Origin: an uncultured Dehalococcoidales bacterium
GTDB lineage: Bacteria > Chloroflexota > Dehalococcoidia > Dehalococcoidales > CAZFRL01
Reading direction: 5' to 3'
Assembly: GCA_964521325.1 (NCBI GenBank)
Contig: CAZFRL010000003.1
Span: 6,373-70,372, forward strand
Length of the DNA stretch: 64,000 nucleotides
In this document: positions 39,701 to 63,447 of the stretch, piece by piece
Layout of the letters: each line of letters starts with the position of its first letter
Position numbering within the stretch: the stretch's first letter is position 1
Program-made: the position numbers and the translations under genes
Notes under the pieces: model-generated
Told to the model about the DNA's origin: nothing
What the model saw: the letters and a program-made list of their open reading frames with translations, nothing else
The model's database searches: none

Positions 39701-39884
39701 CTATTTATTATAGAAGTCATTATACTTCAACACTTTTGGCAAGTCAATGGACAGCAGGCTTTTTAAAAATAAACAACCTAATTTATGCTGTGTTTGTGGC
39801 TGATTGAACTTGTGCCCCACAGGTACATAAGAGTATAATGAGTTAGCATATTTGTAGGACATCTGGCTTATTATGTGCCAAATC

Positions 39885-41618
39885 ATGAAAAGAAATAATC
39901 TTCCCTTCATAGCTGCAATTCTTTTCTTTGTCTGTATAACATTATTACTCGTATATCTTCTAGGAATGCGTCTTTATTCTCCGCTCCCGACTGCTGTTTT
40001 TTGGGTCCTAGTTATCACCGCAATTTCGGCAATGGTATTTCAAATTGCCAGAGTTCCGTGGCCCGGTTATGAACCACTCTTAGTCGTAGAAATTTTAATG
40101 TTCAGCATTATATTGCACATGATTCATCTAGTCCCTCACTATGGCTTCAGCGGTTTTGATTCACTGAGAAATTTGATGGTAGTAAGGGAAACCATTGAAC
40201 AAGGCATGCTATCGCCTGACAGGCTAGGTGCCGCATCTATTGCTGCCTGGCCCTTATTACATATGTGGAGTGCCGAGCTGCACTTCATTACTGGGATTAC
40301 CCCACGAAATATTGCTATGTGGTTTCCATCATTAGTTATTAGCAGCCTTTTTGCTTTACTCTTCTATATCTCTATGAAGCGGGTATTTAAAAGCAAGCAA
40401 GTTGCATTATTAGCCATGTTACTGATGGTGACAATACTATATTTCACATTTAGCGGGGCAATTTTTAAACAGGAATTTTTCGCCTTAGTTATGATGATGG
40501 CTGTGCTTTACTTTTTAACCAAGACACAGGTAAACAATAAGACACGGTTTGCTGTCCTTTCGATCTTATGTTTAGCCGGGGTTATATTTTCCCACCATTT
40601 AACTGCTTTTCTCTTATTGCTCCTTCTTATTGTGTGGCTAATCACTAACCGCCTTTTGGATATACTTGGCGGTAAGTGGCTGGCTTCTCCCAAAAAGGCA
40701 ACCCTTGGCATAACTGGGATATTCACGCTACTTACTTTTATAGGAGTATTTGCTTACCAGATATATATAAATGAATCACTCCTATCGACTTTAATCAGCC
40801 TAAGTCGAGACCTCTTATATGGTGAACAGGGTGTGACACTTGCCGAAACAGCATACGTCGTAAACCCACAAGTCATAATAACAACTACGGGACAAATAAC
40901 ATTCTGGGGCTATTACCTTTTTCACACAGTGTTTGCCATCATTTTGCTGCGTGGCTTACTTTCCCGGTCTAAAGAGAGATTTCCTGAATTTTACTCACTT
41001 ATCCTCCTCTTGTTTGTATATGGGGTTTGGGCACTTGTGCAGTTATACCTTCTGAATGTGAGAACAGCCGGGGTTGTTACTGTAGAACGCTTGCTTATGT
41101 TAGGATGGATTTGGGGACTTGCACCGCTAGTTATTTGCGTTTTGGAGAGCAAGCCAAGATGGGGTAAGCAACTCGGCATAATAGTACTGGCTGCGTTTAT
41201 GGTGTTTAATGTTTATATGATACCACCTGTGGATTGGGACTTCCAGGCATCTGGAAGGATGGAAGGACATGTGGTTTTAAGGGAAGACTATGCTCTAGCT
41301 AAGACGTTAGCCCTTACCGGCGAGGGGGGAACCTTCAAGATGACCGGTATGGCAATCTATGATGTTCAAGGTTACTACAGTCCTTATTACCATCTGGGCA
41401 AAGTTGGCCCTGAATATTTGGAAACGTTTAACTGGATAGCTATTAAGAAAAAAGAGCTAGAAGCCTATGTCGAAACCGGCAATAGACTCATAGGAATGGG
41501 CAGACCATTCAGTTATAATATGGATATGCTGAATGAACTCGAGGAAATGATAATCGAAGATTCTTCCCAGAGTAGGGATAGGATTTACGATTCCAACAAT
41601 CTCGCCGTGTTTAAATAA
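39885..41618 (+). CDS. polytopic membrane protein (~14 TM) with C-terminal soluble domain; possible GT-C-fold glycosyltransferase or polymerase
   Basis: The track ORF is 39873-41618; the ATG at 39885 (MKRNNLPF) is equally possible. Many hydrophobic helices, an acidic first loop (GFSGFD) and a ~130-aa hydrophilic tail. Confidence 0.6.
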   Translation: MKRNNLPFIAAILFFVCITLLLVYLLGMRLYSPLPTAVFWVLVITAISAMVFQIARVPWPGYEPLLVVEILMFSIILHMIHLVPHYGFSGFDSLRNLMVVRETIEQGMLSPDRLGAASIAAWPLLHMWSAELHFITGITPRNIAMWFPSLVISSLFALLFYISMKRVFKSKQVALLAMLLMVTILYFTFSGAIFKQEFFALVMMMAVLYFLTKTQVNNKTRFAVLSILCLAGVIFSHHLTAFLLLLLLIVWLITNRLLDILGGKWLASPKKATLGITGIFTLLTFIGVFAYQIYINESLLSTLISLSRDLLYGEQGVTLAETAYVVNPQVIITTTGQITFWGYYLFHTVFAIILLRGLLSRSKERFPEFYSLILLLFVYGVWALVQLYLLNVRTAGVVTVERLLMLGWIWGLAPLVICVLESKPRWGKQLGIIVLAAFMVFNVYMIPPVDWDFQASGRMEGHVVLREDYALAKTLALTGEGGTFKMTGMAIYDVQGYYSPYYHLGKVGPEYLETFNWIAIKKKELEAYVETGNRLIGMGRPFSYNMDMLNELEEMIIEDSSQSRDRIYDSNNLAVFK

Positions 41619-41705: not shown

Positions 41706-42749
41706 CTAGGCCCTCACCCTAGGGCGAAACATGTAGCCCCAAATTCCTCTAATAATTCCGATAGCAACAGCAAAGAAACCAATATAGCCCACCATAAGTA
41801 CTAACACGGCGTCTTTTGTTTTTTGAATGTACTGCCTTACCTTCATTAATTGAACGAGATAAAAAACTAAAGGTGATACTAAAATCACCAATGATAAATA
41901 CAAAAGTGGCGCAATCTTGAGTAGAAATCCTAGTGTTAAGAGGACGACTAGAATCGGCACAAACCCAGCATTAAACAGGTAGCGAATTCCCATCTTAGAA
42001 GGGTGTTTACGATACATGGCTATTCCCCCGCTGGCACGGTGGTAGGCTTGCTTTATATAATCCCTAATACTGGGTCTAGGGTGTACATACACGATAGCCT
42101 CTGGTTTGAACGCTATCCGATAGCCCATCTGTTCCACCCTCCAAAGGATATCGTGGTCTTCTCCCGCTGACAAAGTAGTGTCGAATCCTCTCACTGCCTC
42201 AAATACGCTCTTTCTGAAGGATTGATTTGTCCCCACACTTTTACCACTACGACTCATGCGCCCATAACGGTCATGGATTCTTGTAACCTTTCGTCCACCG
42301 TAGGCACATACATAGAGTTGGGCAATGGTTCTCTGGCGCCAGTTTTTAACATCGTATTCTACATGCGAGCTACCTACTACTGTGCCTACATCTGAATCCT
42401 CATATCCTTCCACTAGGTTCCTTACCCAGCTTTCGCACACCCTATCATCGGCATCTGTGGTCATCAATATTTCACCGATTGCATTTCTAGCCCCGGTGTT
42501 TATTGCTGCGCTAACACCCTTGTTATAGTCATGGCACACTAGCTTGACCGGATAGCGTGATACAATCCCCCTAGAGCGATCACTAGAGCCGTCATCAACC
42601 ACAATTATTTCCATTTTCTCTGAAGGATAATCCTGCTGAAGTAGCGCCTTGATAGCAGTGCTGACTGTTGATTCGGCATTATAGACAGGCAGAATCACAG
42701 ACACAAATGGAAGCTTCTGCTTGTCTTTCCCTTTTCGATTACTTGCCAT
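41706..42749 (-). CDS. glycosyltransferase family 2 with C-terminal TM helices (processive-type architecture)
   Basis: 347 aa. VILPVYNAE, VVDDGSSD and TDADD, with 3 C-terminal hydrophobic helices. Confidence 0.85.
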   Translation of the reverse strand: MASNRKGKDKQKLPFVSVILPVYNAESTVSTAIKALLQQDYPSEKMEIIVVDDGSSDRSRGIVSRYPVKLVCHDYNKGVSAAINTGARNAIGEILMTTDADDRVCESWVRNLVEGYEDSDVGTVVGSSHVEYDVKNWRQRTIAQLYVCAYGGRKVTRIHDRYGRMSRSGKSVGTNQSFRKSVFEAVRGFDTTLSAGEDHDILWRVEQMGYRIAFKPEAIVYVHPRPSIRDYIKQAYHRASGGIAMYRKHPSKMGIRYLFNAGFVPILVVLLTLGFLLKIAPLLYLSLVILVSPLVFYLVQLMKVRQYIQKTKDAVLVLMVGYIGFFAVAIGIIRGIWGYMFRPRVRA

Positions 42750-43866
42750 GTATATTCCCTAATGGTAATTGTCCTTCCCTTCTCCAAGGAATGTCGTTAC
42801 CATTAAACAGCTCATTGGCAACCCTGTGGCAATTACCTTGATAAACAGGATAGTTTCTCTTACATTCTATAAGGGCTGAAAGAAAATCCTCTTTCACTGG
42901 CTTAGCCATGCATCCACACTGATACTTCCTCACTATTTCTGCGATTTCAGGCACATCGGTAGTTACCACCGGCCTGCCACAGACTAGTGACTCTACAGCT
43001 GATAGTGGAATCTCCGGACTATCCCTCAGGGTAAGGAAGGGGGTAACAGTAATGTGAGTTTGGGCATATAACGAGGGGGTATCAGCTACCCGGTTAATAA
43101 CCTCGACTCGGTTTTCCAAATCTAGCTCCTTAATTTTTCTATGCAGAGTTTGATTATACTTTCCTCTCCACAAAAGGTACAACGAGGCTTTATGATGCTG
43201 GCTAAACTCAGCAAAGGATTCTAAGAGTAAGTCCAGCCCTTTTTCGATAAATGGGGCTTCACTTTCACTCTCCATATTGGGAGCACTGGCAAAAAGTATC
43301 CTAAACTCTTTAATATCGGGTGGTTCACTGTATTTGAATCGGCTTGAATCAACCCAGGGATAGATAAGGAATATCTTTCTGGACTCTACTCCCATAACCG
43401 TTAGTTGTTCTTTTATTCGGCGGCTCTGGGCGATTATAGCCGGTAATTTAGGAGCGAATTTACTAGTAAAGGTCTTGACTATGTCATCGTCAAAGCTAAA
43501 GGGGAGGACATTAATAATAGGAATGCACTTTCTTAAATCCAAAAGGGGAAGGAATCCACTGTTGATGCTGGCTGATAAATATATTATATCGAATCTCCTT
43601 TCAAACAGCTTGACAAAGGGGTAAAAGAAGGCACCATTAACTAGCCGGAGGAAAGGATTCGGCTTTTCCGCCCTTAAGAATCGAGTGTTTATGATGAGAT
43701 ATTGCCCCATCTTCTTAAGCGGCAAAAAACCCAGATTATTGCAGGTCAATACCGGAACTTTGAGCTCTTGCGAAAGCAAATACATCTGATTGGCATATGC
43801 TTCATTAAAGTGCGGGGCAAGTGCATCCCCAACTATACCTATTTTCCGATTAAGCTTCGCATTCAT
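42739..43866 (-). CDS. glycosyltransferase, GT-B fold (GT4-like)
   Basis: 375 aa. The C-terminal SAVESLVCGRPVVTTDVPEIAEIV (E-x7-E-like region) is typical of GT4. Confidence 0.75.
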   Translation of the reverse strand: MNAKLNRKIGIVGDALAPHFNEAYANQMYLLSQELKVPVLTCNNLGFLPLKKMGQYLIINTRFLRAEKPNPFLRLVNGAFFYPFVKLFERRFDIIYLSASINSGFLPLLDLRKCIPIINVLPFSFDDDIVKTFTSKFAPKLPAIIAQSRRIKEQLTVMGVESRKIFLIYPWVDSSRFKYSEPPDIKEFRILFASAPNMESESEAPFIEKGLDLLLESFAEFSQHHKASLYLLWRGKYNQTLHRKIKELDLENRVEVINRVADTPSLYAQTHITVTPFLTLRDSPEIPLSAVESLVCGRPVVTTDVPEIAEIVRKYQCGCMAKPVKEDFLSALIECKRNYPVYQGNCHRVANELFNGNDIPWRREGQLPLGNIHGK

Positions 43867-43883: not shown

Positions 43884-44981
43884 TCAGCAGATTCTGGCTA
43901 TAAACTGGTAAATTTGGTTGAAGGTATCTGGGCTGTAGGCAGACGGAATTTCTACCTTGTAGGCTGGTATATTCTCCAGACTGCTTCTCAAGCTCTCGGC
44001 TAGTTTCCTTTCCTGGGTAGCGACCAGGCTGTTGGGGAAAACAAAAGAGTAAGCGAGCATGTACCGTAGAAAGGGAGCGGAGCTTATACCAAAACTGGAC
44101 ATACCCATGCCTGAAAAGTCCTCCAGTCTGGCACTAAGTAGCAGGCTGTCTACGATTTGTTCTAAAGAAGCCTGGGGAAGGGGTTCAAAATTAACTCGTT
44201 TATCGGCATGTAATCCGCTGCTCCTAGTGATTAAGAGCAGAGTCTTTAATTTAGCCGATTTAGTCTCGTTCCCTCCAGCTTTTCCATGCTTGTCTCTCAG
44301 ATACCGGGCAATAAATTGAGCCTGTTGGAGAATACCAAAATTTGTCTCGTTAGACAACTGTTTGGTCATAAAGTCAAACATGGCAGGATTCATAGGAAAG
44401 TCCAAAATCTTATTCTGGTGCAGAATCACTCTGTCGTCGCCGAGGCAGGTAAAGCCAGCACAACGCACAAAATCCATACACAGCGAGGTCTTAAAGCCAC
44501 CAGCTCGTCCACTGAGCAAGTATGCCTGATTATCCTTGCTCACGGCTGCTGAATGGGTTAGAAAGTAGCCTTTCAGGCTCAGTTTATGCTCGATGATTCT
44601 GAGTAAGAAGGCTTGAGGAAAGAACAGGGATATGCGAACCAAGCTGAAAGGCTGCATTTGAAATTGCCTACTCGAATGGAGATTGATTATAGTATTTCCC
44701 TGTTCAAACCCTTTTATCTCCACATTCCAGCTTGCCCTCCCCTCAGACTCATGGCAGTAGAAGTAGTTATCCTTGATGTAATATTTATAGTCTACGAGGT
44801 AGCAGTTCTCATTTGAAGGGGTAAACCTGCCTATATTCAGGACTATATCCGGCTTTTCCACTTGCTCAACCTGAAAACAGGAGAACCTCAGGTTTATCAA
44901 GTCCCCGAAGTCAAATTTTCTATCCCTGATTATCTGAAATTTCAGGATGTCATGGATATTGTAGCTTAAAATCTGTTTCAT
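43884..44981 (-). CDS. HPr-kinase-like (HprK C-domain/PEPCK-like P-loop) protein, degenerate Walker A (paralogue B)
   Basis: 365 aa. THSAAVSKDNQAYLLSGRAGGFKTSLCMDFVRCAGFTCLGDDRVIL parallels the HprK/P pattern HG.......G.LI.G.SG.GKSE.AL.L..RGH.LVADD. The GK of the P-loop is FK, and the DD is retained. Confidence 0.6.
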   Translation of the reverse strand: MKQILSYNIHDILKFQIIRDRKFDFGDLINLRFSCFQVEQVEKPDIVLNIGRFTPSNENCYLVDYKYYIKDNYFYCHESEGRASWNVEIKGFEQGNTIINLHSSRQFQMQPFSLVRISLFFPQAFLLRIIEHKLSLKGYFLTHSAAVSKDNQAYLLSGRAGGFKTSLCMDFVRCAGFTCLGDDRVILHQNKILDFPMNPAMFDFMTKQLSNETNFGILQQAQFIARYLRDKHGKAGGNETKSAKLKTLLLITRSSGLHADKRVNFEPLPQASLEQIVDSLLLSARLEDFSGMGMSSFGISSAPFLRYMLAYSFVFPNSLVATQERKLAESLRSSLENIPAYKVEIPSAYSPDTFNQIYQFIARIC

Positions 44982-45030
44982 CTGTTAAGCTTTCCTTGCC
45001 TTCATCGTCAGATATACTGAGTGCCTGGGG

Positions 45031-45228
45031 TCAGGGCGAGATAGCAGCCTCCACACCACAAAGCTGGTCTGTTCCAATTTTCTTGCTTAGCTCCAGGGTA
45101 AAGCTGCCATCACTACAGCCCAGATCCAAGAGTTTAGCGGATTTATCTGGCTCCAGGAGGTCAATGATAACCCTCCTATTTTCAAGGTCAGCGGAGTCTT
45201 GGAGTTTCTTTGACCATTCCCTCAGCAT
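45031..45228 (-). pseudogene. truncated class I (MetW-like) SAM methyltransferase remnant (N-terminal 65 codons only)
   Basis: Encodes ...VIIDLLEPDKSAKLLDLGCSDGSFTLELSKKIGTDQLCGVEAAISP* and stops just after motif I/post-I. Full-length relatives are ~200 aa. None of the three frames of the 49-nt gap before the next gene continues the fold. Confidence 0.6.
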
Positions 45229-46253
45229 TTGCCTGCCAATTTGGTTATCCTGTCCAGGGTTTCATTATCGTATTTCAGCGGCACCTCTACCTGGTAGAAG
45301 GCCTGTGCCACACTTAAGGACTGACTCAGGTTCGCTTCATATCGAGCCCAATGAGTAGCCATATTGCTCCGGGGAAATAGATAAGAGTATTCCATCATAT
45401 ATTTAATGAAGGGAAGGGACTCAAGCTTTTGATTTGATATCACATGAGCGATAAATTCCTCTTTGCTAATCTTTTTCACCTTGAACTCCTTTCGGGGCAG
45501 AAGAAGAAAAACAGAGTGAACATTCGCCTTATCCTGTGTCAAGCCCGGGAATAAAGTTTTCGGGCTGATTTTGGTCCCCATCTGCAGTCCTGTTATTTTT
45601 TGGGAGATTTGATTAACCCTGAAAAGGAGTCTATGCCTTGCTTTCATCCTCCTTCTGATAAAAGGAGTTAGATTAAAATCTACGATGTGTAATGGCAAAG
45701 GAAAACTTAATACAGCATTATTACCCAAGATAACAAAATGGTCTCCAAGAAGCTTGAACCCCCTCTCCACAAGGTTTAAGGCAACGGTAGTCTTGCCAGC
45801 AGCACCTCGTCCAGTGAAGATATATGCTCTATCGTCCTTGACCACTCCAGAGCCATGCACAATAGCGTAGCCTTTTTCATTCAGCTTGAACCATATCAGG
45901 TGATTTATTATGAAGTCAGGGAGAAGCAGCCAGGCAAAGGGATTAGCTGAAACATGGACCTCCATACTGCCACCACTAAATCCAGATATCTTTAGTCGCC
46001 ATTTAGCATATTTATAAGAATCAGAGCAGTAGAGGTAATCTTCCTGTATATAGAACTTATCGTCCAAGATATGGCAATTTGGGCTTTGTGAACTGAATTT
46101 GCCCAAGCAGATAGTAAAATCTGGCTCATCTTTTTGTTTTGACTCAAAATCCCGCAATTCAATGTCCCAGAAAGGAAGAATCCGGCTCAACAAAACAGCA
46201 TTATTCACTACTTTAAAGGTGACAATATCATGGATGCTATAATACTTTTCCAC
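45222..46253 (-). CDS. HPr-kinase-like (HprK C-domain/PEPCK-like P-loop) protein, intact Walker A (paralogue A)
   Basis: 343 aa. VHGSGVVKDDRAYIFTGRGAAGKTTVALNLVERGFKLLGDHFVIL has an intact Walker A (GRGAAGKT). The HprK LVADD position reads LLGDH. Confidence 0.65.
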   Translation of the reverse strand: MEKYYSIHDIVTFKVVNNAVLLSRILPFWDIELRDFESKQKDEPDFTICLGKFSSQSPNCHILDDKFYIQEDYLYCSDSYKYAKWRLKISGFSGGSMEVHVSANPFAWLLLPDFIINHLIWFKLNEKGYAIVHGSGVVKDDRAYIFTGRGAAGKTTVALNLVERGFKLLGDHFVILGNNAVLSFPLPLHIVDFNLTPFIRRRMKARHRLLFRVNQISQKITGLQMGTKISPKTLFPGLTQDKANVHSVFLLLPRKEFKVKKISKEEFIAHVISNQKLESLPFIKYMMEYSYLFPRSNMATHWARYEANLSQSLSVAQAFYQVEVPLKYDNETLDRITKLAGKC

Positions 46254-46261
46254 AACTTTTA

Positions 46262-47287
46262 CTAAATTCCCCGAACTTCTTTTAGCTTCTTAATACAGGC
46301 TTGGGCAAATTTTTCTATGTTGCCGGTTTCAATCAATATCCCATTCTCATCAATCACCTCTGGATGAGGCCCAATATCAAAAGCAACTACTGGCTTCCCA
46401 CAAGCCTGCGCCTCTGCTACTGGAACATTGAAGGTCTCCCAGAGTGAACCCGTAGCGTAGAGATCACACATTGCATAGTAAAGAGGGAGAACCCCATGGG
46501 CGACAAAATTAGCAAATACTACCGAGTCGTCGCTTATACTCTTTAGATCTCGGAAATAATAGGCGTAATCAGGGCGCCCAACAATGACAAGTTTAGCACT
46601 CGGTATCTTCTCCTTAACCAAGTTGAAAGCACGGATTAGGAGATGAACACCCTTTACCGGCCGCAATCCTCCGACAAAAAGGATAGTAGGGTCACTCCCC
46701 AGGCCGTATTTTCTCCTGATTTCATAACCATTGACCCCTAGGTGAAATTTTTCCAAATGTATCTTGTTATATACAACTTCGCTGTCTAATCCAGTGTATT
46801 GCTTGAGTTCCTTCTGCGCGTATTTACTTACTGCAACAGCACTGTCTGCATTCTTTACAGTAAGTCTGGTAAGGAATATCTGCAATTTAATATAGATTCG
46901 CTCGTAGAGGTGTGGGAAGAATTGGGGATCCATAATTCCGTGATACCACACTTTATGCTCAACCTTATAGAATCTCTTGGCGAGGTAAGCCAGCCAAGTC
47001 ATTGGATACTGGTGTGTAATAATTAGATCAAAGCTCCTCAGTTTGGGAAGCCACTGCAAAGTTCGAAATATGTCCAGCGGGAAGACCAATCGATAGATTC
47101 TCTCCCAGGTCGGATTTTTGGGCATACCAATAATAAATACGTTAACATTCCTTGGCCTTATGGCGGCACGCAGAGCAAATATGGCAACGTAGTTGCCCTG
47201 GGCCACTAGTTCTTGAGCCTGAAGCTCAGCTACTCGAGCGCCACCGTCATAGTCGACAAAGTTAGGATACAGTATGGCTATCCTCAT
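46262..47287 (-). CDS. glycosyltransferase family 4 (GT-B)
   Basis: 341 aa. FVGGLRPVKG and ETFNVPVAEAQACGKPVVAFDIGPHPEVI (E-x7-E). Confidence 0.85.
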   Translation of the reverse strand: MRIAILYPNFVDYDGGARVAELQAQELVAQGNYVAIFALRAAIRPRNVNVFIIGMPKNPTWERIYRLVFPLDIFRTLQWLPKLRSFDLIITHQYPMTWLAYLAKRFYKVEHKVWYHGIMDPQFFPHLYERIYIKLQIFLTRLTVKNADSAVAVSKYAQKELKQYTGLDSEVVYNKIHLEKFHLGVNGYEIRRKYGLGSDPTILFVGGLRPVKGVHLLIRAFNLVKEKIPSAKLVIVGRPDYAYYFRDLKSISDDSVVFANFVAHGVLPLYYAMCDLYATGSLWETFNVPVAEAQACGKPVVAFDIGPHPEVIDENGILIETGNIEKFAQACIKKLKEVRGI

Positions 47288-47480: not shown

Positions 47481-47915
47481 TCAATCTGCTTTAGTATCCC
47501 TTACCTGCCTTAATAGGTTCTCAACAAGCTTTGAGCTTTCTCTTAGTTGACTGCCAACACCATAAACTATCTTGCAGCCAATCTCTTCACATGCCTCTAT
47601 TTCATTTTGTGGCATATTGTCATGGATTCTATCTCCCCCTTTGGCAAATATATCGGGCTTAACCAATTTTAATGTCTCGGCTTGGGTGCCATCGTTGTCC
47701 ACGGTAGCGATAACCTCATCAACACAGCGTAATTCCTTCAGAATTTTCATTCTGTCTTCCAGGGGCATAAAGCAATAACCCTTCTTCCTTATCATATCTT
47801 CGTCATTACTGACCAAAACAATGAGATAATCACCTAGCGTCTTTGCTTTCTGAAAGTGTCGCAAATGACCAATGTGCAAAGGGTCAAAACCACCAGCTAC
47901 AGCTACTCTTACCAT
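47481..47915 (-). CDS. small HIGH-motif nucleotidyltransferase (cytidylyltransferase-like; HldC/RfaE-domain-II or TagD-like)
   Basis: 144 aa. GGFDPLHIGHLRHF..AK.LGDYLIV.VSND and KGGD. Confidence 0.8.
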   Translation of the reverse strand: MVRVAVAGGFDPLHIGHLRHFQKAKTLGDYLIVLVSNDEDMIRKKGYCFMPLEDRMKILKELRCVDEVIATVDNDGTQAETLKLVKPDIFAKGGDRIHDNMPQNEIEACEEIGCKIVYGVGSQLRESSKLVENLLRQVRDTKAD

Positions 47916-47968
47916 CTCTTGCTCCTTAAAATATAATAGGAGACTAAGATCGCTATTCTCATTCTCTA

Positions 47969-48658
47969 TTAGGAGCTCTCCTTAACTGCTGCCATCATCT
48001 CAATGGCTTTATTAGCATCGGTGACAAATTGCCGTACGGTATCACGGGTATATTTATGGTCTACCATTCGAGTAAGGAACGGGGGTGGGATGGTGATGAT
48101 GTGAGCGCCGGCTATTGCCGCCTGAAGGATATCAGCCACCGACCTTATGCTGCCAACGATGATTCGGCTCTTATATTTCCAGCGCTCAAGCCAGTCAACC
48201 GAATTTTTGATAACCTCTGACACATTTCCACCCTCATCACCCACTCTGCCAGCAAAAATACTGATAAAGGTCGCCCCAGCTTTGGCCGCAAAAATAACCT
48301 GTCCTAATGACAGGGCTACTGTTGCATTAACCTTTATCCCTTCGTTTTCAAGTTGTCTGATAACTCCATAGCAGGGGGTGCCATCCTGAGTTGTCTGGGG
48401 AACCTTGATAACAATGTTCGGTGTCCAGGAAGCAAACTTATGTGCCTGAGCTACCATTTCCTCAAGGTCATTGGTGGTAACTTCAACGCTTACCGGGCGA
48501 GGATGAACCAATCTAGCAATCTCTGTCGCTCCCTTCTCTATGTTGTAAACACCATCTTTGAGCATTATGGAAGGATTGGTGGTAACACCATCAGCTATGC
48601 CCATCTCAACCCATCTTTCAATTTCCTTTACATCTGCTGAATCAATGAAAATTTCCAT
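47969..48658 (-). CDS. tal: transaldolase / fructose-6-phosphate aldolase family (short, TalC/Fsa-type)
   Basis: 229 aa. FIDSADVKEI, GVTTNPSI and VIKVP (Schiff-base Lys). Confidence 0.85.
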   Translation of the reverse strand: MEIFIDSADVKEIERWVEMGIADGVTTNPSIMLKDGVYNIEKGATEIARLVHPRPVSVEVTTNDLEEMVAQAHKFASWTPNIVIKVPQTTQDGTPCYGVIRQLENEGIKVNATVALSLGQVIFAAKAGATFISIFAGRVGDEGGNVSEVIKNSVDWLERWKYKSRIIVGSIRSVADILQAAIAGAHIITIPPPFLTRMVDHKYTRDTVRQFVTDANKAIEMMAAVKESS

Positions 48659-48668
48659 ATGTATCCTC

Positions 48669-49250
48669 CTAGGTTAAGATTATTTGCACTGCTTCTAAGA
48701 GATTTGAGGCAATGGCATCGGGTCTTATATTTTCTTCATCCATCAGATGGCAGAGTTCGCACTTCATCCTGCCGAGAAGTATGGTCCTACATCCAGCACC
48801 CTTTCCTGCTTTAACATCAGTAAGCCCATCACCTACCATCCAGGACTGAGATAGATCTATGTTATGCTCCCTTGCCGCTTGAAATAGAAGCCCAGGTTTA
48901 GGCTTTCGACATTCACAGTTCACCCTTAAGCTCTCATCCACTGCCTCAGGGTGATGGAAACAATAGTATTCGCCATCAATGAAAGCCCCCTGTTCAGCGA
49001 GTTGCTCTCTCATTTTCTCTCTGATTTTCTCAAAAGTCTCCCATGAGAGATGCCCTTTTGCTATTCCCGGCTGGTTGGAAACTATGATCACTTTGTACTC
49101 CGTCTCTTTCAGCTTCTTAATAGCCTCACCTGCCCAGCGGAAGAGTTTCAATTGCTCTGCAGTGAACGGCGAATCAATAATCCCGTGCTCCTGGTAGTAG
49201 ACAAGCTCATTTACCACGCCATCCCTGTCAAGAAAAACTGCTCGGTTCAT
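48669..49250 (-). CDS. gmhB: D-glycero-D-manno-heptose 1,7-bisphosphate phosphatase
   Basis: The start is moved to the ATG at 49250 (ATGA overlap with the gmhA stop), giving MNRAVFLDRDGVVNE; the track start is 49277. SNQPGIAKG and the Zn-finger insert C.H...C.CRKPKPG are GmhB hallmarks. Confidence 0.85.
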   Translation of the reverse strand: MNRAVFLDRDGVVNELVYYQEHGIIDSPFTAEQLKLFRWAGEAIKKLKETEYKVIIVSNQPGIAKGHLSWETFEKIREKMREQLAEQGAFIDGEYYCFHHPEAVDESLRVNCECRKPKPGLLFQAAREHNIDLSQSWMVGDGLTDVKAGKGAGCRTILLGRMKCELCHLMDEENIRPDAIASNLLEAVQIILT

Positions 49251-49846
49251 AATTCGGTTATCTTCTGCTTTAGACAACTACAAATAAGGTGCTCTAAAGT
49301 CAGGTGAAAAGACTCCACATAGGGAGTGGAATTTGCCGGAACGACAATACAAGCATCGGCAATTTCCTTCATTGGTCCACCATCAAAGCCGGAAAGGCCA
49401 ATGGTCTTACCCCCGTTCTCCTTGACATACCTCATCGCCTTGATGAGGTTTTGTGACCATAAGTCTGCTTTATCTCGCCCAGCACCACCATGTACGCTGA
49501 TGCAGATAAGGACATCCCCCTCATGGAATTTAGTCTTGAGCTGCTCAATGAAGAGGCTATCAAAGCCTTCATCATTTATTAAGGCAAGCATGAGAGGAAT
49601 GTTATCATTGAGGCATTCGGCTTTGAATCCTCTTTTTCCCTCAGGGGCGGCAGTCTTAAGCAGGTCGCAGGCGAAGTGAGTAGCGGTGGAGGCAGAGCCT
49701 CCGTTTCCACAGGTATAGACCCGATTTCCATTCCTCCAGGCATCAAAGAGGATTCCAATAACCTTATCCGTGTCCTCTACTGATATCTTTCGGGCAACCT
49801 CACTTACCCCAGATAGGTAATCCTCAATGAGTTCCCTGTTTTTCAT
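49247..49846 (-). CDS. gmhA: phosphoheptose (sedoheptulose-7-phosphate) isomerase, SIS domain
   Basis: 199 aa. CGNGGSASTATHFACDL and the SIS-domain layout. Confidence 0.85.
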   Translation of the reverse strand: MKNRELIEDYLSGVSEVARKISVEDTDKVIGILFDAWRNGNRVYTCGNGGSASTATHFACDLLKTAAPEGKRGFKAECLNDNIPLMLALINDEGFDSLFIEQLKTKFHEGDVLICISVHGGAGRDKADLWSQNLIKAMRYVKENGGKTIGLSGFDGGPMKEIADACIVVPANSTPYVESFHLTLEHLICSCLKQKITEL

Positions 49847-49869
49847 AATTCCTCCGGTTGCCTGACTTA

Positions 49870-50856
49870 TTAGGTGTTAGCCAGTATCTTCGCCCCATCA
49901 AAGTCAAAGTGAAACCTTTCCCACCCAAGTCCCATCTTGTGCATAGCCTCTATTACCTTGGACTTATCGCTGTTATTGCAGTAAAACATCAAAAATCCTC
50001 CCCCGCCGGCTCCAATCAGTTTACCTCCTATAGCCCCGTTCTTCCGGGCGACCTCGTAACACTCGTCAACAAAAGGATAGGATATCTTCGAAGAGCGCTT
50101 TTTCTTTGTCTCCCAGTGAACTTGAAGGAATTCGCCAAGGCTATCTACCTCTCCTTTTTCTAGATGCCTTCGTGTTTCCAAGCCTATTTCTTTAATCTGA
50201 TGGAGATTTTGAATCATTGCCGGGTTATCCTTTCTACTCTGCTTGTCATGCTCAGAGAGTATCTCCGAGGCATTCCTCTCCTTACCGGTGAAGAAGAGGA
50301 CAAGATTGCTCTCTAATCGGTCTAGAGCTTCCTCAGATATTCGCAATGGCTCTACGGTAACTCCGCCATTCTTCTCGAAGGTGAGGCAAGTGAGACCACC
50401 GAAAGCAGCCATATACTGGTCTTGTTTACCTATAGGTTCCCCTATGAGGTCTATCTCAATGTGACAGGCTTCCTCAGCGAGCTGCCTTTGGTTTATGAAT
50501 TCACTCTTATAAGCATGAAGGGCATTAAGAAGAGCTACAGTGAAACTGGAGGAGGTGCCTAGTCCGCAGCCAGCGGGCACATCAGCAGCAGAATGAAGCT
50601 CTATTCCCTGTTCAATGCCAAGGAGCTTAAGGGCTGCCTTGAAGATTCGATGCTCTATGTCATCTACATTATCTATTATCTCCATCTTAGAATAGCTAAG
50701 TCGGATACTGTTATAAAATCTCTTGTTAGCCAAGATAGTGCAATATTTGTTAATTGCCCCGGCAATCAGGAAACCGCCATATTTGGAATAATACGCTGCG
50801 AAATCTGTTCCCCCACCTCCCAAGGTTATCCTTGTCGGTGCTCTTGAAAGTATCAT
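49870..50856 (-). CDS. hddA: GHMP-family sugar kinase, D-glycero-alpha-D-manno-heptose 7-phosphate kinase-like
   Basis: 328 aa. SRAPTRITLGGGGTDF, the GHMP motif II PAGCGLGTSSS and the C-terminal GAGGGGF. Confidence 0.75.
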   Translation of the reverse strand: MILSRAPTRITLGGGGTDFAAYYSKYGGFLIAGAINKYCTILANKRFYNSIRLSYSKMEIIDNVDDIEHRIFKAALKLLGIEQGIELHSAADVPAGCGLGTSSSFTVALLNALHAYKSEFINQRQLAEEACHIEIDLIGEPIGKQDQYMAAFGGLTCLTFEKNGGVTVEPLRISEEALDRLESNLVLFFTGKERNASEILSEHDKQSRKDNPAMIQNLHQIKEIGLETRRHLEKGEVDSLGEFLQVHWETKKKRSSKISYPFVDECYEVARKNGAIGGKLIGAGGGGFLMFYCNNSDKSKVIEAMHKMGLGWERFHFDFDGAKILANT

Positions 50857-50887
50857 TTCACCCTCATTCGGTTGTTATCTGACATAG

Positions 50888-51616
50888 CTAGAGCTTGGCT
50901 TTGGCTACGCTTGAGAAAGAACGTGGAGATAGATTACTTTTAGCGAACTCTTCGAAATCTTTAAGTCCCTGAGGTGAGCCTATCTCATAGAAGCGATTCC
51001 TGACCTCATAGGCAAGAAGGTCTCCCGTCTCAATGAGCCGTGAAAACAGTCGCTCCAGAGTATAGTGACCCTGTGGAATCATTTTAAGGATTTCTTTTCT
51101 GAAGATATTCGCTCCATATTCAATATAGACCATACCGGCAGCTCTTTCGCTCTTGCTAAACTTCTTTACTAGCTCTCCTGCTACAACGGTGTTGCTCCTC
51201 TCATATTTGTCGTAGTTTTTATAAACACTCATAAGAGCAAGATTATCCTTAGACTCAAAAAAGGACATGGCAGCTTTAAAGTTCAGGAATAGATAAGAAT
51301 CGCCGTAGAGGGTAAAAAGGATATCTTCGAGCAGGTTCTCAGCGTTTTTAAGCGCTCCAGCGGTACCGAGGAGTCCATCCTCGCGACTATATTTCACACT
51401 CATCCCAAACCTATTTCCGTCTCCAAAATAATTCTCTATTTGTTCCCCAAGATGACCAATACATAAGATGATATCCCTTATTCCGTTTTCCCTAAGAAAG
51501 TCGAGTTGATGTTCAAGGAAAGGCTTACCCAAGATTTGAACCATGGATTTAGGGCGGTCTCGAGCTAAGGCTTCTAGCCTTGTTGCCAGACCTCCAGCCA
51601 GTATTACTACCTGCAT
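50888..51616 (-). CDS. sugar-1-phosphate nucleotidylyltransferase, heptose-1-phosphate guanylyltransferase-like (HddC-like)
   Basis: 242 aa. VILAGGLATRL...PK.MV.I.GKPFLE. Substrate is inferred only from the operon context. Confidence 0.7.
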   Translation of the reverse strand: MQVVILAGGLATRLEALARDRPKSMVQILGKPFLEHQLDFLRENGIRDIILCIGHLGEQIENYFGDGNRFGMSVKYSREDGLLGTAGALKNAENLLEDILFTLYGDSYLFLNFKAAMSFFESKDNLALMSVYKNYDKYERSNTVVAGELVKKFSKSERAAGMVYIEYGANIFRKEILKMIPQGHYTLERLFSRLIETGDLLAYEVRNRFYEIGSPQGLKDFEEFAKSNLSPRSFSSVAKAKL

Positions 51617-52658: not shown

Positions 52659-54095
52659 TTAGAAAAGATGCTTAAAGAAAGTTCTAGCTGATTTAAAAGT
52701 TCTTCTAATCTCCCTGGGCTTAAGTATCATCCTCTTCGCTTTCATCAATATATACCGGGGTCTCAGATAGTACTCACGAATAGCTCGTTCACAAAAGGCA
52801 TTTATCTCCTCTGCTGGTAGGTTAGGTAGATTTAAAAGGCAATTATACCTCGTCTCTTCTATTACCCATTTGGAGTAGTCGGAAGTAGTAAGGTAATTAT
52901 TTCTTTTTGCCCATTCAAAAGCTTCTGTACCCGGATAAACTTGGAGAGGGTAAAATTGCATGGTATCGCAGTTGAGTTCCTTGGCGAGTTTAAGGGTTTT
53001 TCCCATGGTTTCTTTGGTCTCACCCGGGTTACCGACAATAAAGCAGCCATGAACCGTCAAGCCTGCCTTTCTTGAATTTTTGACATATTCACGAATCTGC
53101 TTAACTGTTATCCCCTTGTGCATTAAATCCAGTGAATTCTGGTCTCCACTTTCAAAACCTGTTCCAAGCCCCCTGCATCCCGCCTCCTTCATCGCTAACA
53201 TTGTCTCTAAGTCCAAGTCAGCCCTAACTTGGGCATACCACCTTATTTTGATGTTCCGCGCCAGAATTAATCGACATATCTCTCGTACCCTCTCTCTGTC
53301 AATCGTAAAGGTATCATCATCTAGTTCTATTGCCTTCACCTCAGGCAGCTTCTCAGCAATATATTCAAACTCGTCAACCACATTGGCTGCACTCCGTGGT
53401 CTAAATTGCCGGCTGTGAAAAGTCTGGGGATACAGGCAAAAAGAACATTTATAGGGACAACCTCTCGCTGTCAATATCTGTACCATGGGATAGTCCACAG
53501 CAGCGAAGAAATAGTTTTTGATGTTGAGATGCTTTTTGTAGACCTTGCTGACAAAGGGAAGCTCGTCAAGGTTCTCGATTAAAGGACGAGGTCTATTGTA
53601 AACCACGCTGCTGTTTTCTCTGAAGATAAGTCCATCGACAGCTCTCAAATCACCTTTATCACTCAGGCAGTAAGCAAGGTCACGAATCGTATAATCATAT
53701 TCTCCCTTCGCCACCGCATCTACTTTGTTACTTAATAGAAGGGTTTCTTCAGGTAGAACAGAGGGATGAGTACCGACTAAAGTGATAAAGGCGGAGGGAA
53801 AGGCAGCTTTCAATTTCTCAACTACTTTGATGTCGTTGTAGATGCTGGGGGTACTGGTATCAACCACAATTAAGCGGGGCGAGGATTTTTCTGCCCTCTC
53901 GATGATATTATTAATGGAATAACCCTCTGCGGGGGCATCGATGAGGCTTACATTAAACCCATTCTGGTCAAGAACCCCGGCGGCATATACCAGCCAAAAA
54001 GGGTAGTAAAGTGTGCCCCCGATTGACACCCCAGGGCTTCGGGATGTTCTGGAAAATCTGTTCATGAATGGCGGATTTAGTAATAAGACATTCAT
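52659..54095 (-). CDS. B12-binding-domain radical SAM enzyme (class B rSAM, likely methyltransferase-type)
   Basis: 478 aa. An N-terminal cobalamin-binding-like Rossmann region, then TARGCPYKCSFCLYP (CxxxCxxC) and a TIM-barrel rSAM core. Confidence 0.8.
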   Translation of the reverse strand: MNVLLLNPPFMNRFSRTSRSPGVSIGGTLYYPFWLVYAAGVLDQNGFNVSLIDAPAEGYSINNIIERAEKSSPRLIVVDTSTPSIYNDIKVVEKLKAAFPSAFITLVGTHPSVLPEETLLLSNKVDAVAKGEYDYTIRDLAYCLSDKGDLRAVDGLIFRENSSVVYNRPRPLIENLDELPFVSKVYKKHLNIKNYFFAAVDYPMVQILTARGCPYKCSFCLYPQTFHSRQFRPRSAANVVDEFEYIAEKLPEVKAIELDDDTFTIDRERVREICRLILARNIKIRWYAQVRADLDLETMLAMKEAGCRGLGTGFESGDQNSLDLMHKGITVKQIREYVKNSRKAGLTVHGCFIVGNPGETKETMGKTLKLAKELNCDTMQFYPLQVYPGTEAFEWAKRNNYLTTSDYSKWVIEETRYNCLLNLPNLPAEEINAFCERAIREYYLRPRYILMKAKRMILKPREIRRTFKSARTFFKHLF

Positions 54096-54115
54096 ACCAA
54101 CTCTTCTTCCATAGC

Positions 54116-55075
54116 CTACTTAATGCCGGTTTTATGTGGAAGTATTATTCCTTTCCAAAACCCGAGAGTGTATAAAGTATGCTCGACAATATAGACAAAC
54201 GGTATCGAAACTAAATACCTAATATCTCTTTCTCGAATTATGAACTTCAAAGCCATAGTTACTAATAGAAGACAATATAAGCCCAGTAGAGATAGAAAGG
54301 CCCAACGGGTAAACAGCAGTGATAGAACAACCAAAGGGATAACCAATGGCGGGATAACTTGTAAGTCCCAGGCTCGAATCACCCCTCTCTCTTTTCCATA
54401 CCGATACATCTTTTTGGCGAATTTTCCCACGGTCCAGCCATGTTGGTGCAAAACTATTGCCTCTGGGGTATAGAGCAATTTTCCTTTCTTATAAAGCTTC
54501 TTATTCAGTTCCAAATCCTCTCCACCAGGTAACTTAATATTGAACCCACCTACCTTCAATATGTCCTGCTTACGATATACACTATTAAATCCACCAATGC
54601 TTCTTAAAAAGCGTTTGTTCTTGAAGAACCTTCCTTGTGGTGTTTTAGCACCTCCCAGAAATGTACCCATGGAAAGGTTGATTGATTTTTCCCACAGGCT
54701 GTCTCCTGTATTTTTTGTTGCCCCACCAACACCAATAATACCCGTATCAAATTCTTTAATTAAATTTCTTAGCCATTCTTTATCTGGTATACAGTCAGCA
54801 TCGGTAAAAGCTATATACTCCCCTTTCGCCCTTTCTGTTCCAATCTGACGAGCGCAAGCTATGGATTGAGCACCCTCGTAGAATATTTTCACTAGGAAGT
54901 TCCTCGCCTTTCCCACCGTCTCATCGGTGGAATGCCCATCAACGATGATGACCTCATAAGGCTTTAGTGATTGAGAAAAGACCGCTTTTAGGCATTGCTC
55001 TATCTTAGCAGCTTCATTCCGCGCCGGTATTACTACAGATATCTTGGGTCTACTCACTCCTCTTACTTCCCCCAA
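54116..55075 (-). CDS. glycosyltransferase family 2 with C-terminal TM helices
   Basis: 319 aa. VVIPARNEA, IIVDGHSTDET and TDADC. The TTG start overlaps the upstream gene by 26 nt, so the exact start is uncertain. Confidence 0.8.
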   Translation of the reverse strand: MGEVRGVSRPKISVVIPARNEAAKIEQCLKAVFSQSLKPYEVIIVDGHSTDETVGKARNFLVKIFYEGAQSIACARQIGTERAKGEYIAFTDADCIPDKEWLRNLIKEFDTGIIGVGGATKNTGDSLWEKSINLSMGTFLGGAKTPQGRFFKNKRFLRSIGGFNSVYRKQDILKVGGFNIKLPGGEDLELNKKLYKKGKLLYTPEAIVLHQHGWTVGKFAKKMYRYGKERGVIRAWDLQVIPPLVIPLVVLSLLFTRWAFLSLLGLYCLLLVTMALKFIIRERDIRYLVSIPFVYIVEHTLYTLGFWKGIILPHKTGIK

Positions 55076-59048: not shown

Positions 59049-59138
59049 GGTATTAACTCAAGAAGCGTTGTTTGTTGGTGTTCTTCCACAACGATAGACG
59101 AGTGCTAAACTTTATAAAGTATAAGCTGGAGGCTAAGA

Positions 59139-62100: not shown

Positions 62101-62519
62101 GCCGGAGTGCTGATGGCTTCTTCCTGGAGAAGCATCCCAAGCTCGACCCAGTAGCTACAATGAGTGATGGTATCTTCGTGGTTGGCTGCGCTCAAGGTCC
62201 CAAGGATATACCGGACAGTGTAGCTCAGGCTTCAGCCGCTGCAGCCCGGGTTCTGGCTATGATTAATGTGGGCACTGTTGAGATTGAGGCAGCTACTGCC
62301 GTTATCGACGAAAGAATCTGCTCCGGCTGCCAGATTTGTAAGCTTGTGTGTCCCTATGCTGCTATCTCCTTTGACGAAGAGAAGGAGGTGTGTCGGGTTA
62401 ATGAAATTCTATGCAAGGGGTGTGGTGCCTGTGTTGGTGGTTGTCCCAGTGATGCTATAAGCCTTAGTCACTTCACTAATGAGCAAATCCTGGCGGAGAT
62501 GGAGGGTATGCTGGTATAG
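59139..62519 (+). CDS. HdrA-like protein with internal GltD/NfnB-like NAD(P)H-FAD module (HdrL-type architecture)
   Basis: 1126 aa. Residues 1-287 and ~760-1126 are collinear with the upstream HdrA. Residues ~288-755 (nt ~60000-61400) carry CRAACPAGV...C.RVCTHPCE..C, VAIIGSGPAGLACAYDL, GGLLRYGIPEYRLP and VIIGGGNAAVDAAR, i.e. the glutamate-synthase small-subunit-like fold. Confidence 0.85.
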   Translation: MEPRIGVYICHCGSNIAGTVDVEQVAQFAQNLDSVVVARDYKFMCSDPGQQLIKDDIKELGLNRIVVASCSPTMHEPTFRRVCQESGLNPYVFEMANIREHCSWVTEDHGEATEKAKALVSAAVRRVYYHQPLETRRVSINPNTLVVGGGISGIQAALEIADSEHKVYLVEREPSIGGHMCQLDKTFPTLDCSACILTPKMSDVGSHPYIELMSYSDIVDVSGFVGNFKVKIKKKPRYVDVDKCTGCSDCANVCPVELPAEFEFGRSQRKAIYRPFPQAVPNAFTIDKRGYPPCRAACPAGVNAQGYIALISQGKFKEALNLFRETQPFARVCGRVCTHPCEIDCERGGVDEPIAIRSLKRFMADYELKVGREKATPVEKTKKEEVAIIGSGPAGLACAYDLIREGYPVTVFEAAPQAGGLLRYGIPEYRLPNEIVDNEISYIEELGVEIKTNAPVKDLENIFNQGYHAVFLAAGAGTSQKMGIPNEDTKGVIHALDFLNQVNLGTEVSLGNRVVIIGGGNAAVDAARVSRRLGAKEVTIVYRRSRAEMPAVKSEVDEAEREGVKIHILAAPVKILSQNDHLTGIRCIQMELGEPDASGRRRPIPIKGSEFDMDVDNVIIAIGQAVDKPALPKELEYTGWGTLSVDPVTLQTNIEGVFAGGDVVAGPADVIAAIAVGKEAAISVSRYIRGEDLTEGRPTSIKRVQEVSKEGVEKKARSAMPMLELEKRKGFNEVELGFDEKMAIEEAGRCLNCGVCSECMECVKVCEVNAINHEMEEEIVEVEVGNIIVATGFNLFEPTGIYQYGYGSLDNVLTSLEFERMVNASGPTTGEIVLKDGSHPQSVAIIHCVGSRDKDYHEYCSRVCCMYSMKFSHLLREHVPGIKVYEFYHNDIRSFGKGFEEFYNRVIDEGTIFIQSRPTRVTNIAETPEEKEKLIVQYELVDSSQCRQPVDYELDSSQYRQPVDMVILSCAMEPQPDVEAVARLFGISRSADGFFLEKHPKLDPVATMSDGIFVVGCAQGPKDIPDSVAQASAAAARVLAMINVGTVEIEAATAVIDERICSGCQICKLVCPYAAISFDEEKEVCRVNEILCKGCGACVGGCPSDAISLSHFTNEQILAEMEGMLV
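61479..62519 (+). repeat. high-identity paralogous block, copy 2
   Basis: Counterpart of 58053-59048. It is 45 nt longer: a 42-nt tandem-duplication unit plus one extra codon (YHNDIR versus YVDIR). Confidence 0.8.
61950..62030 (+). repeat. in-frame tandem duplication (42 nt + 39 nt) inside the HdrA-GltD gene
   Basis: tatgaattagtagacagttcacaatgtcgtcaaccggtggat / tatgaattagacagttcacaatatcgccaaccagtggat. This encodes YELVDSSQCRQPVD-YELDSSQYRQPVD, whereas hdrA at 58519-58560 has a single YELDSSQCRQPVD. Confidence 0.9.
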
Positions 62520-62528
62520 CAATACCCC

Positions 62529-63401: not shown

Positions 63402-63447
63402 CTTCAGTTCTCCAATTATAAATACCACCTGGCCAAGTTGATTGAAG

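Follow-up and report, generated by a model that had tools for sequence, protein, structure and literature searches.

What do two adjacent kinase-like P-loop proteins do in the middle of a glycan locus? The question arose from a 64,000-nucleotide stretch of contig CAZFRL010000003.1 (assembly GCA_964521325.1) of an uncultured Dehalococcoidales bacterium, here called the window, in which two paralogous genes, A and B, lie between glycosyltransferase genes. Read from the DNA alone, they had been described as HprK-like proteins with complementary motif decay that might act together as a kinase or phosphotransferase in glycan assembly (the original prediction). Our analysis showed that A and B are members of the HprK/phosphoenolpyruvate carboxykinase (PEPCK) P-loop superfamily that stand outside every curated family, and that their motif deviations represent a family-wide, selected division and not decay. 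The context of the family points to an as yet undescribed step in the making of cell-surface glycans, probably the addition of a phosphate.

Relationship of A and B to known families

A and B aligned over their full lengths at 30% identity (BLASTP, E 1e-49), in line with the 25-30% first estimated by eye, and their family profiles aligned with an HHalign probability of 100% (E 7.8e-74 over 330 columns), a similarity far above chance. Both N-termini start with (Y/N)IHDI(V/L)xF, and that of A, MEKYYSIHDI, agrees with those of the A homologues. These starts, the gene coordinates and the P-loop and Asp motifs were as originally described. A contains H133, a G148-RGAAGKTT-156 P-loop and L-L-G-D171-H172, and B contains H143, G158-RAGGFKTS-166 and G-D182-D183. 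Measured against the HprK/P motif set, A has the His and the Walker A motif but an Asp-His pair, and B has the His and the Asp-Asp pair but a Phe in place of the Walker Gly. Neither protein contains a predicted transmembrane segment, which places both in the cytoplasm. Searches recovered 60 homologues of A, at 45-100% identity, and 130 homologues of B.

Matches of the two proteins to HprK-type models were weak and covered approximately 45-70 residues around the P-loop. A matched HprK_rel_A (E 1.3e-7, 31 bits), HprK_rel_B (E 4.6e-5, 22.7 bits; cut-off 200), Pfam Hpr_kinase_C (PF07475; E 0.0019, 18.2 bits against a cut-off of 33.3) and the HprK/P model TIGR00679 (16 bits against a threshold of 240). 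B matched HprK_rel_A and HprK_rel_B (each E 2.4e-4, 20.3 bits; cut-off 200) and had no HprK match in Pfam. Among 29 diverse family members, HprK_rel_A matched all 29 (best E 2.6e-10) and HprK_rel_B 27 (best E 1.6e-11); at E <= 0.01, PF07475 and TIGR00679 matched 10 and 11 of the 29, and the ScmC model TIGR04249 matched four (best E 1.1e-7). None of the 29 came near any curated threshold for HprK/P, HprK_rel_A/B or ScmC. TIGR04249 did not match A or B of the window at E up to 10, precomputed PF27840 (ScmC) matches on some relatives were mostly graded 'weak' or 'faint', and neither protein matched a Pfam or NCBIfam PEPCK model at E <= 10. When compared with PDB sequences, the A-family profile matched HprK/P (E 0.006) and the best genuine match of the B profile was an ATP-PEPCK (E 0.07), with PEPCK matches of the two profiles ranging from E 0.07 to 0.7. 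The HprK/P and ATP-PEPCK matches span the His, the P-loop and the Asp segment. The top PDB match of the B profile, the designed β-propeller 'Bagel', was discarded as an artefact of eight sub-threshold repeats on one β-hairpin. One family member weakly matched the phosphonate kinase FomB (E 0.007). The HprK/P C-domain pattern of the original prediction was therefore detected in both proteins, but as a weak match around the P-loop, and the profile searches returned the superfamily relationship at scores below every curated threshold. True membership in HprK/P, HprK_rel_A/B or ScmC was rejected on these scores, and A and B are treated as a separate family because none of the curated models for HprK, HprK-related kinases or ScmC scores as high as its threshold.

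The AlphaFold2 models (pLDDT 90.3 and pTM 0.89 for A, 83.9 and 0.86 for B) matched ATP-PEPCK and HprK/P with a Foldseek probability of about 1.0. In Foldseek searches of the PDB with query-normalised TM-scores, the best match of the A model was an ATP-PEPCK (E 1.5e-8, TM-score 0.57), as were all of the top 35 matches, and that of the B model was E. coli ATP-PEPCK (E 2.5e-6, TM-score 0.49), with ATP-PEPCKs filling the top six places; these scores refer to the whole protein and do not place the N-terminal ~105 residues on the PEPCK N-domain. HprK/P matched the models in the C-terminal P-loop domain only (TM-score about 0.2-0.3), and the full-length structures 1ko7 and 1knx gave TM-scores of 0.22-0.28 with root-mean-square deviations of 12-14 Å. 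The N-terminal half of HprK/P did not superpose, and the two-domain HprK architecture was not seen. The label 'HprK-like' fits the P-loop half only, because the whole protein is nearer to ATP-PEPCK (TM-score 0.57 vs. 0.22-0.29); judged by the models, A and B as wholes are better called small PEPCK/HprK-superfamily proteins.

Several known systems resemble A and B in part. HprK/P (PF07475, TIGR00679) shares the His, GxxGxGK[ST] and Asp(-Asp) motifs at identical spacing (17 residues from K to D), but A and B lie in a glycan-assembly setting and not in one of carbon catabolite control. No phosphotransferase system genes were found in the 64-kb window. The best-scoring curated models for the family, TIGR04352 and TIGR04355, match about 60 residues and describe HprK-related kinases A and B, two adjacent HprK-like paralogues of unknown function; the tandem arrangement resembles that of A and B, which are adjacent in 13 loci, but the PqqD-type, RiPP-like (ribosomally made and post-translationally modified peptide) context of those kinases is absent in the window. 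ScmC (PF27840, TIGR04249) is similar in size to A and B. The SynChlorMet cassette combines radical-SAM/SPASM maturases with a small precursor, in contrast to the surroundings of A and B, where the neighbours are GT4, GT2, GT-C and methyltransferase genes, the radical-SAM genes are B12-binding and HpnJ-like, and no precursor peptide was seen. A RiPP cassette was rejected for the lack of a conserved small open reading frame (ORF) or SPASM maturase beside the pair, and with the radical-SAM genes being GT2-paired in most loci. ATP-dependent PEP carboxykinase (PckA) has a similar fold but is about 530 aa long, vs. 343-365 aa in A and B. The fold, the superfamily and the tandem HprK-related precedent (TIGR04352/TIGR04355) are known already; a distinct family, active sites that complement each other family-wide beside a solo form of ancestral type, and a fixed glycan/AglB place in Archaea and Chloroflexota appear to be undescribed.

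Division of the active site and genomic pairing

At E <= 1e-30, a profile search with A and B detected 326 clusters formed at 50% identity, almost all of them about 350 aa long, and at E <= 1e-10 the number rose to 1,286; the smaller number is taken here as the minimum size of the family. Bacterial members came from Chloroflexota/Dehalococcoidales metagenome-assembled genomes (MAGs) and a WOR-3 bacterium, and archaeal members from Thermoplasmatales, the cultured Methanobacterium oryzae DSM 11106, Methanophagales, Candidatus Methanoperedens, Aenigmatarchaeota and Micrarchaeota. A and B are conserved at 40-80% identity across the two domains of life, and the closest homologues of the pair were binned as Dehalococcoidales. 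One Methanoperedens protein bore an automatically assigned 'HPr ki…' label, and none of the other members from these sources had a functional name.

Motifs were compared in 316 family sequences (115 A-type, approximately 200 B-type). The residue before the Walker-A Lys is Gly in 114 of the 115 A-type sequences, whereas in B-type sequences it is Phe (150), His (14), Tyr (10), Ser (8), Leu (5) or Gly (3); the Lys itself is present in all 115 A-type and in 198 of 203 B-type sequences. D171 is kept in 109 of 115 A-type sequences and is followed, at A position 172, by His (48), Asn (43), Asp (20) or Glu (4), compared to Asp (170) or Glu (29) at the same place in the B-type. Both types keep the His, the P-loop Lys and the first Asp almost without exception, even among sequences with as little as approximately 25-30% identity. 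A solo clade from DPANN archaea, present in single copy, has both 'SDD' and the P-loop A[CS]KGV[GA]KT[ST], which is canonical in essence: the residue before the Lys is Gly in most members and Ala in three. A further subgroup, B′, occurs without A and has the P-loop GMGGAFKTT and the acidic motif GDE. The decay proposed by the original prediction is contradicted by the fixation of the same deviations across the 115 A-type and about 200 B-type homologues and by the solo clade, which has both motifs; recent pseudogene formation was rejected on the same grounds, both ORFs being intact, full-length and widely conserved. The simplest reading of the sequences would be that a self-sufficient ancestor duplicated and that the copies then fixed complementary changes, and A and B would therefore now work together.

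Thirteen distinct loci have A followed by B, in most cases with the stop and start overlapping by 4-32 nucleotides; they come from Chloroflexota, Thermoplasmatales, Methanobacterium, Aenigmatarchaeota and Methanoperedens (locus L014, which carries a divergent A). All 17 annotated loci have a glycan-assembly context and none another, which bears out the proposed tie of the pair to glycan assembly and contradicts a pair restricted to non-glycan contexts. Recurrent neighbours are Alg14/Alg13 or GT4 genes upstream and GT2 or GT4 genes downstream, together with a GT-C-type membrane protein with 12 transmembrane segments, methyltransferases and a module of GT2 and B12-binding radical-SAM genes. The GT-C-type protein of M. 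oryzae (607 aa, encoded after B) matched that of L001 (610 aa) with E 2e-56 and the PMT_2-type protein of the window (Table 1) with E 7e-8, and DUF2206 or PMT_2 proteins take this role in other loci. In the window, Pfam confirmed the GT4/GT4/GT2 flanks; the gaps to the flanking genes are as small as predicted (8 and 17 nucleotides), but A and B are 240 nucleotides apart. No conserved small ORF, dedicated protein partner or SPASM maturase was found next to the pair. A defence or 'conflict' system, considered after weak GT4-conflict matches on neighbouring genes, was rejected when PADLOC models gave no match to A, B or the flanking GT4s at E <= 0.01.

The solo clade adjoins STT3/AglB in four of four loci (Aenigmatarchaeota, Micrarchaeota and two metagenomic relatives). 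Three of these loci also contain PMT_2, a small GT2 and a Wzx-like flippase, and two (L021, L022) an initiating Glycos_transf_4; together with AglB, these genes make up a core N-glycosylation cluster. Precursor genes are few, with one UDP-glucose dehydrogenase in L021 and in L022 and an additional epimerase in L022. The context of the family is thus more specific than 'surface glycan', with solo relatives beside STT3/AglB and GT-C-type proteins recurring. In three loci, an ATP-grasp enzyme always precedes B′ and an unrelated thymidylate-kinase-like P-loop protein always comes next, perhaps taking the place of A as a non-homologous partner; the complete module comprises a PHP phosphoesterase, the ATP-grasp enzyme, B′, the thymidylate-kinase-like protein, DUF354 and a GT2. 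Loci L012 and L013, taken at first as a sign that B can occur by itself, were partly revised, as both belong to the B′ subgroup.

At the A-B junction of the window lies the N-terminal stub of a MetW-like methyltransferase, with its ATG overlapping the A stop codon. The stub shares 45% identity over 55 aa (E 5e-17) with the L019 methyltransferase of the same slot, a gene that is split by a frameshift in a G run. In M. oryzae (L008), the junction is filled by a class-I methyltransferase of 290 aa that carries a Trm112-like zinc ribbon and overlaps both neighbours, and in a Dehalococcoidales MAG (L009) by an unrelated 303-aa protein of the S-adenosylmethionine (SAM)-methyltransferase fold. Three unrelated methyltransferase families therefore share the slot, and any gene found there is a methyltransferase. 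Three independent insertions of this kind are unlikely by chance, at roughly 0.1-2% in a rough estimate that assumes methyltransferases to be roughly 10-25% of the genes in these loci. A methyltransferase also overlaps the stop codon of B in L010. In L017, the A-B gap of about 240 nucleotides contained no recognisable ORF and no methyltransferase remnant, and the gene of a 540-aa Phosphodiest protein (PF01663, alkaline-phosphatase superfamily) overlaps the B stop codon, with three GT4 genes after it.

Two further observations concern loci of this set. The glycan locus of M. oryzae encodes a third, distant HprK-like protein (294 aa, Hpr_kinase_C E 3e-6, GNSGLGKST…TDD), followed by an NTP_transf_5 nucleotidyltransferase, an arrangement that resembles the kinase and nucleotidyltransferase pair of phosphoglycosylated lasso peptides. 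The sequence of the A orthologue of L009 contains a masked stretch of N bases in its record.

Proposed function and competing explanations

We propose tentatively, and with somewhat less than even confidence, that A and B together make up a heteromeric phosphotransferase that uses ATP and acts on a lipid-linked glycan. The superfamily and fold, the paralogy, the complementary motifs, the pairing and the glycan/AglB context are shown, whereas the heteromer, its activity as a kinase and its acceptor are inferred. A and B would form a cytoplasmic hetero-oligomer in which A would provide a canonical nucleoside-triphosphate site and bind ATP. B keeps the His, Lys and Asp-Asp, the putative metal and acid-base residues, but with Phe for Gly its phosphate loop is remodelled, and for that reason B probably binds a non-nucleotide, for example the acceptor. 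The pair would be an accessory enzyme of lipid-linked glycan assembly (of N-glycan or S-layer-glycan type) and would transfer phosphate from ATP to a sugar of the growing lipid-linked oligosaccharide. The phosphate could then be methylated or could be the attachment point for the neighbouring ArnT-like GT-C membrane transferase. The methyltransferases in the A-B slot and the Phosphodiest gene at the B end in L017 speak for phosphate chemistry, and the thymidylate-kinase-like P-loop neighbour in the three loci with B but no A is counted in favour of A-B pairing.

Precedents exist for parts of this scheme. WbdD, the chain terminator of the E. coli O9a O-antigen, phosphorylates and then methylates the polyprenol-linked O-antigen terminus, a kinase and a methyltransferase giving a methyl-phosphate cap akin to the one proposed here (PMC3482155). 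The kinase of WbdD is of the eukaryotic protein-kinase fold and forms a fusion with its methyltransferase, whereas A and B have the P-loop PEPCK/HprK fold and the methyltransferase, in loci that have one, is a separate gene; WbdD has no homology to A or B and is a functional analogy only. Lasso-peptide kinases (e.g., paeninodin PadeK) and the pseudomycoidin kinase and nucleotidyltransferase are, as with A and B, HprK homologues recruited to a biosynthetic cluster, and such a homologue phosphorylates a lasso peptide before hexoses are put on that phosphate (PMC8498205). The lasso-peptide kinases differ from A and B in that their substrate is the C-terminal Ser of a peptide and that they are single-copy and have a RiPP context.

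A number of points weigh against the phosphotransferase. The sequence similarity to kinases is limited to the short, sub-threshold matches around the P-loop, and the TM-scores of 0.49-0.57 obtained with the models indicate a common fold, not a common function. The second Asp is the catalytic base of HprK/P; A-type sequences mostly lack it and B lacks the Walker Gly, so that by their sequences neither site is textbook-competent. We know of no glycan of a host organism that bears the predicted phosphate, and full-text searches for the A/B family, ScmC, SynChlorMet, HprK-related kinases in glycosylation, and HPr kinase with archaeal glycosylation or AglB returned nothing relevant. The share of methyltransferases among the locus genes means that their proximity could be partly incidental. 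The characterised HprK-type enzymes act on Ser of proteins or peptides and not on sugars (PMC8498205).

That substrate preference is what an HprK-type Ser/Thr kinase acting on a glycosyltransferase, AglB or a glycoprotein acceptor, for regulation or phosphoglycosylation, would have in its favour: all characterised enzymes of this type use Ser of HPr or of RiPP precursors, the phosphate of pseudomycoidin receives hexoses (PMC8498205), and the third HprK-like gene of M. oryzae precedes NTP_transf_5 in the same locus. However, we consider such a kinase unlikely, given that the recurring neighbours are glycosyltransferases, GT-C proteins and methyltransferases, with no conserved small ORF or dedicated protein partner, and that the overall fold is nearer to PEPCK, a small-molecule enzyme, than to HprK/P. 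The same structural match, to a small-molecule phosphotransferase, would suit an enzyme of soluble precursors, either a small-molecule kinase or a PEP-dependent enzyme making an activated sugar, a sugar acid or a phospho-compound, as would the abundance of precursor-synthesis genes in the loci and the weak FomB match of one family member. Precursor genes vary between loci, however, while the pair is fixed between glycosyltransferases; DPANN solo loci beside AglB have few such genes, and the heptose pathway of the window already has its own kinase, which makes this explanation quite unlikely.

The solo copies next to AglB, the initiating Glycos_transf_4 in the L021 and L022 clusters and the small DPANN genomes, in which carrier supply is a core need, could instead point to the lipid carrier, with the family acting as a polyprenol or dolichol kinase or in the synthesis or recycling of carrier (pyro)phosphate; the remodelled loop of B could bind polyprenyl (pyro)phosphate. 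This is slightly less probable again, because known polyprenol kinases are integral membrane proteins and A and B have no membrane segments, and the coupling to methyltransferases would be left unexplained. We give still less credence to the idea that the pair is a scaffold or a set of pseudoenzymes, sensing nucleotides without catalysis and organising the glycosyltransferases: A and B both depart from the canonical catalytic motifs and are always flanked by glycosyltransferases, but the near-invariant His, P-loop Lys and first Asp and the complete solo site form a pattern typical of retained chemistry. Decaying remnants of an HprK-like gene without current function could be suspected from the motif deviations in both copies and the truncated methyltransferase between them; intact ORFs, 40-80% identity across two domains, fixed deviations and confident models effectively refute this.

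In an extended form, which we regard as rather improbable as a whole, the proposed phosphotransferase would carry out a widespread and so far undescribed step in the glycosylation of proteins and surfaces in Archaea and Chloroflexota, with an obligate A/B heteromer putting a phosphate 'handle' on the lipid-linked oligosaccharide. The phosphate would be installed in the cytoplasm and methylated (in A-methyltransferase-B modules) or, after flipping, glycosylated by the ArnT-like PMT_2 GT-C protein, which would use a polyprenyl-phosphate sugar supplied by the small GT2 beside it. ATP would be bound by A, and the phosphate or pyrophosphate of the acceptor by B through its remodelled loop; the obligate heteromer would have arisen from a self-sufficient, AglB-linked ancestor through complementary loss.

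The surrounding locus and implications

The window is a glycan locus of about 49 kb, the features of which are listed in Table 1 with those of the compared loci. The GT2 and HpnJ-like B12-radical-SAM module accompanies A and B in most loci; L008 and L010 have B12-radical-SAM genes with no GT2 shown beside them. Polysaccharide deacetylases occur near this module. In hopanoid synthesis, HpnI, HpnK and HpnJ carry out GlcNAc transfer, deacetylation and ring contraction to a cyclitol. The GT2/deacetylase/HpnJ-like set mirrors these enzymes, and by this analogy the glycan may contain a carbocyclic or C-modified sugar.

Table 1. Positions of A, B and associated features; positions are those of the window unless a locus number is given.
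Feature	Position	Strand	Evidence
Copy A, PEPCK/HprK-superfamily protein, 343 aa	45222-46253	minus	ORF, GTG start
A P-loop G148-RGAAGKTT-156, canonical Walker A	45786-45812	minus	G153 and K154 invariant in alignment A1
A D171-H172, counterpart of HprK/P Asp-Asp	45738-45743	minus	Hidden Markov model alignment to L. casei HprK/P
Copy B, paralogue of A, 365 aa, conserved non-canonical P-loop	43884-44981	minus	ORF
B variant P-loop G158-RAGGFKTS-166, Phe at Walker-A Gly	44484-44510	minus	F163 nearly invariant in alignment A2
B acidic pair D182-D183	44433-44438	minus	D182 invariant in alignment A2
65-codon N-terminal stub of MetW-like class-I SAM methyltransferase between A and B	45031-45228	minus	Motif I LLDLGCSDG
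GT4, 8 nt upstream of A	46262-47287	minus	Pfam Glycos_transf_1 6e-31, Glyco_transf_4 5e-19
GT4, 17 nt downstream of B	42739-43866	minus	Pfam Glyco_trans_1_4 6e-19; orthologue at same position in L009
GT2, C-terminal membrane region, overlaps preceding GT4	41706-42749	minus	Pfam Glycos_transf_2 7e-30
PMT_2-type (GT-C-like) membrane glycosyltransferase, 12 transmembrane segments	39873-41618	plus	Pfam PMT_2 5.8e-6, 12 hydrophobic segments
GT2 and HpnJ-like B12-radical-SAM module	52659-55075	minus	HpnJ E 6.7e-124, below equivalog cut-off
Same GT2 and B12-radical-SAM pair in other loci	L001 1893-4380; L002 1162-3592; L014 2566-5220; L019 2655-5251; L023 3572-5990		
Heptose-type precursor set	47481-51616	minus	
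Second large glycan sub-locus	9774-32137	plus	
PglK/MsbA-type fused ABC exporter	24197-26005	plus	
Three ORFs, 602-638 aa, few or no hydrophobic segments	16354-18162; 18177-20093; 32163-33971	plus	
Flank of the glycan locus with HdrA2-like flavoprotein	57093-63428		
B′ module	L016 8808-11778; L020 5741-8771; L013 6820-9759		
Third HprK-like ORF and NTP_transf_5 of M. oryzae	L008 421-3028		
A orthologue of Dehalococcoidales MAG, masked N bases	L009 8500-8600		
Phosphodiest gene overlapping B	L017 3424-5046		

Just upstream of GT4-A-B, the window carries a complete set of heptose-type precursor genes, which is syntenic in L001. It encodes a transaldolase/FSA-like protein, a GmhB-like HAD phosphatase, a GmhA-like SIS isomerase, a GHMP kinase, a nucleotidyltransferase and a small RfaE-domain-II-like adenylyl/cytidylyltransferase (77 bits). 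The second sub-locus, on the opposite strand, includes a PseF-like cytidylyltransferase, a DegT aminotransferase, a formyltransferase, a PIG-L deacetylase, several methyltransferases, two NeuB synthases (one of them a fusion with CTP_transf_3 and SAF) and an HpcH/HpaI aldolase with a CMP-transferase, and points to nonulosonic-acid-type sugars. The three ORFs of 602-638 aa had no Pfam match, and the first had no BLAST similarity to the other two. Beside the glycan locus lie genes for an HdrA2-like flavoprotein (857 bits against the HdrA2 model of methanogen type), a fused Fe-S flavoprotein of 1126 aa that resembles HdrA/GltD and a subunit similar to the gamma subunit of hydrogenase/sulfite reductase. 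This gene set suggests an anaerobic host, possibly a methanogen or an archaeon of ANME type, in contrast to the binning of the nearest A and B homologues as Dehalococcoidales. No tRNAs were found in the window.

What is known of archaeal N-glycosylation and of the pathways for S-layer glycans comes only from a few model species, and the clusters contain many genes with no assigned role. The kinase-like family defined here, of at least 326 clusters, is fixed in the glycan clusters of methanogens, Methanoperedens, Thermoplasmatales, DPANN archaea and Dehalococcoidia-type bacteria, and in reduced DPANN genomes a member directly adjoins the oligosaccharyltransferase AglB. With its solo form and the A and B pair, the family is a clean natural case of complementary active-site divergence after duplication and is useful for studying the evolution of obligate heteromeric enzymes and pseudoenzymes. 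The hypothesis of a glycan phosphotransferase is testable because the cultured M. oryzae DSM 11106 carries an A-methyltransferase-B module. If A and B do act as a phosphotransferase on the glycan or its carrier, they would represent a new enzyme class, of the PEPCK/HprK fold, in glycan tailoring, and phosphorylated or methyl-phosphorylated glycans would be predicted in these lineages.

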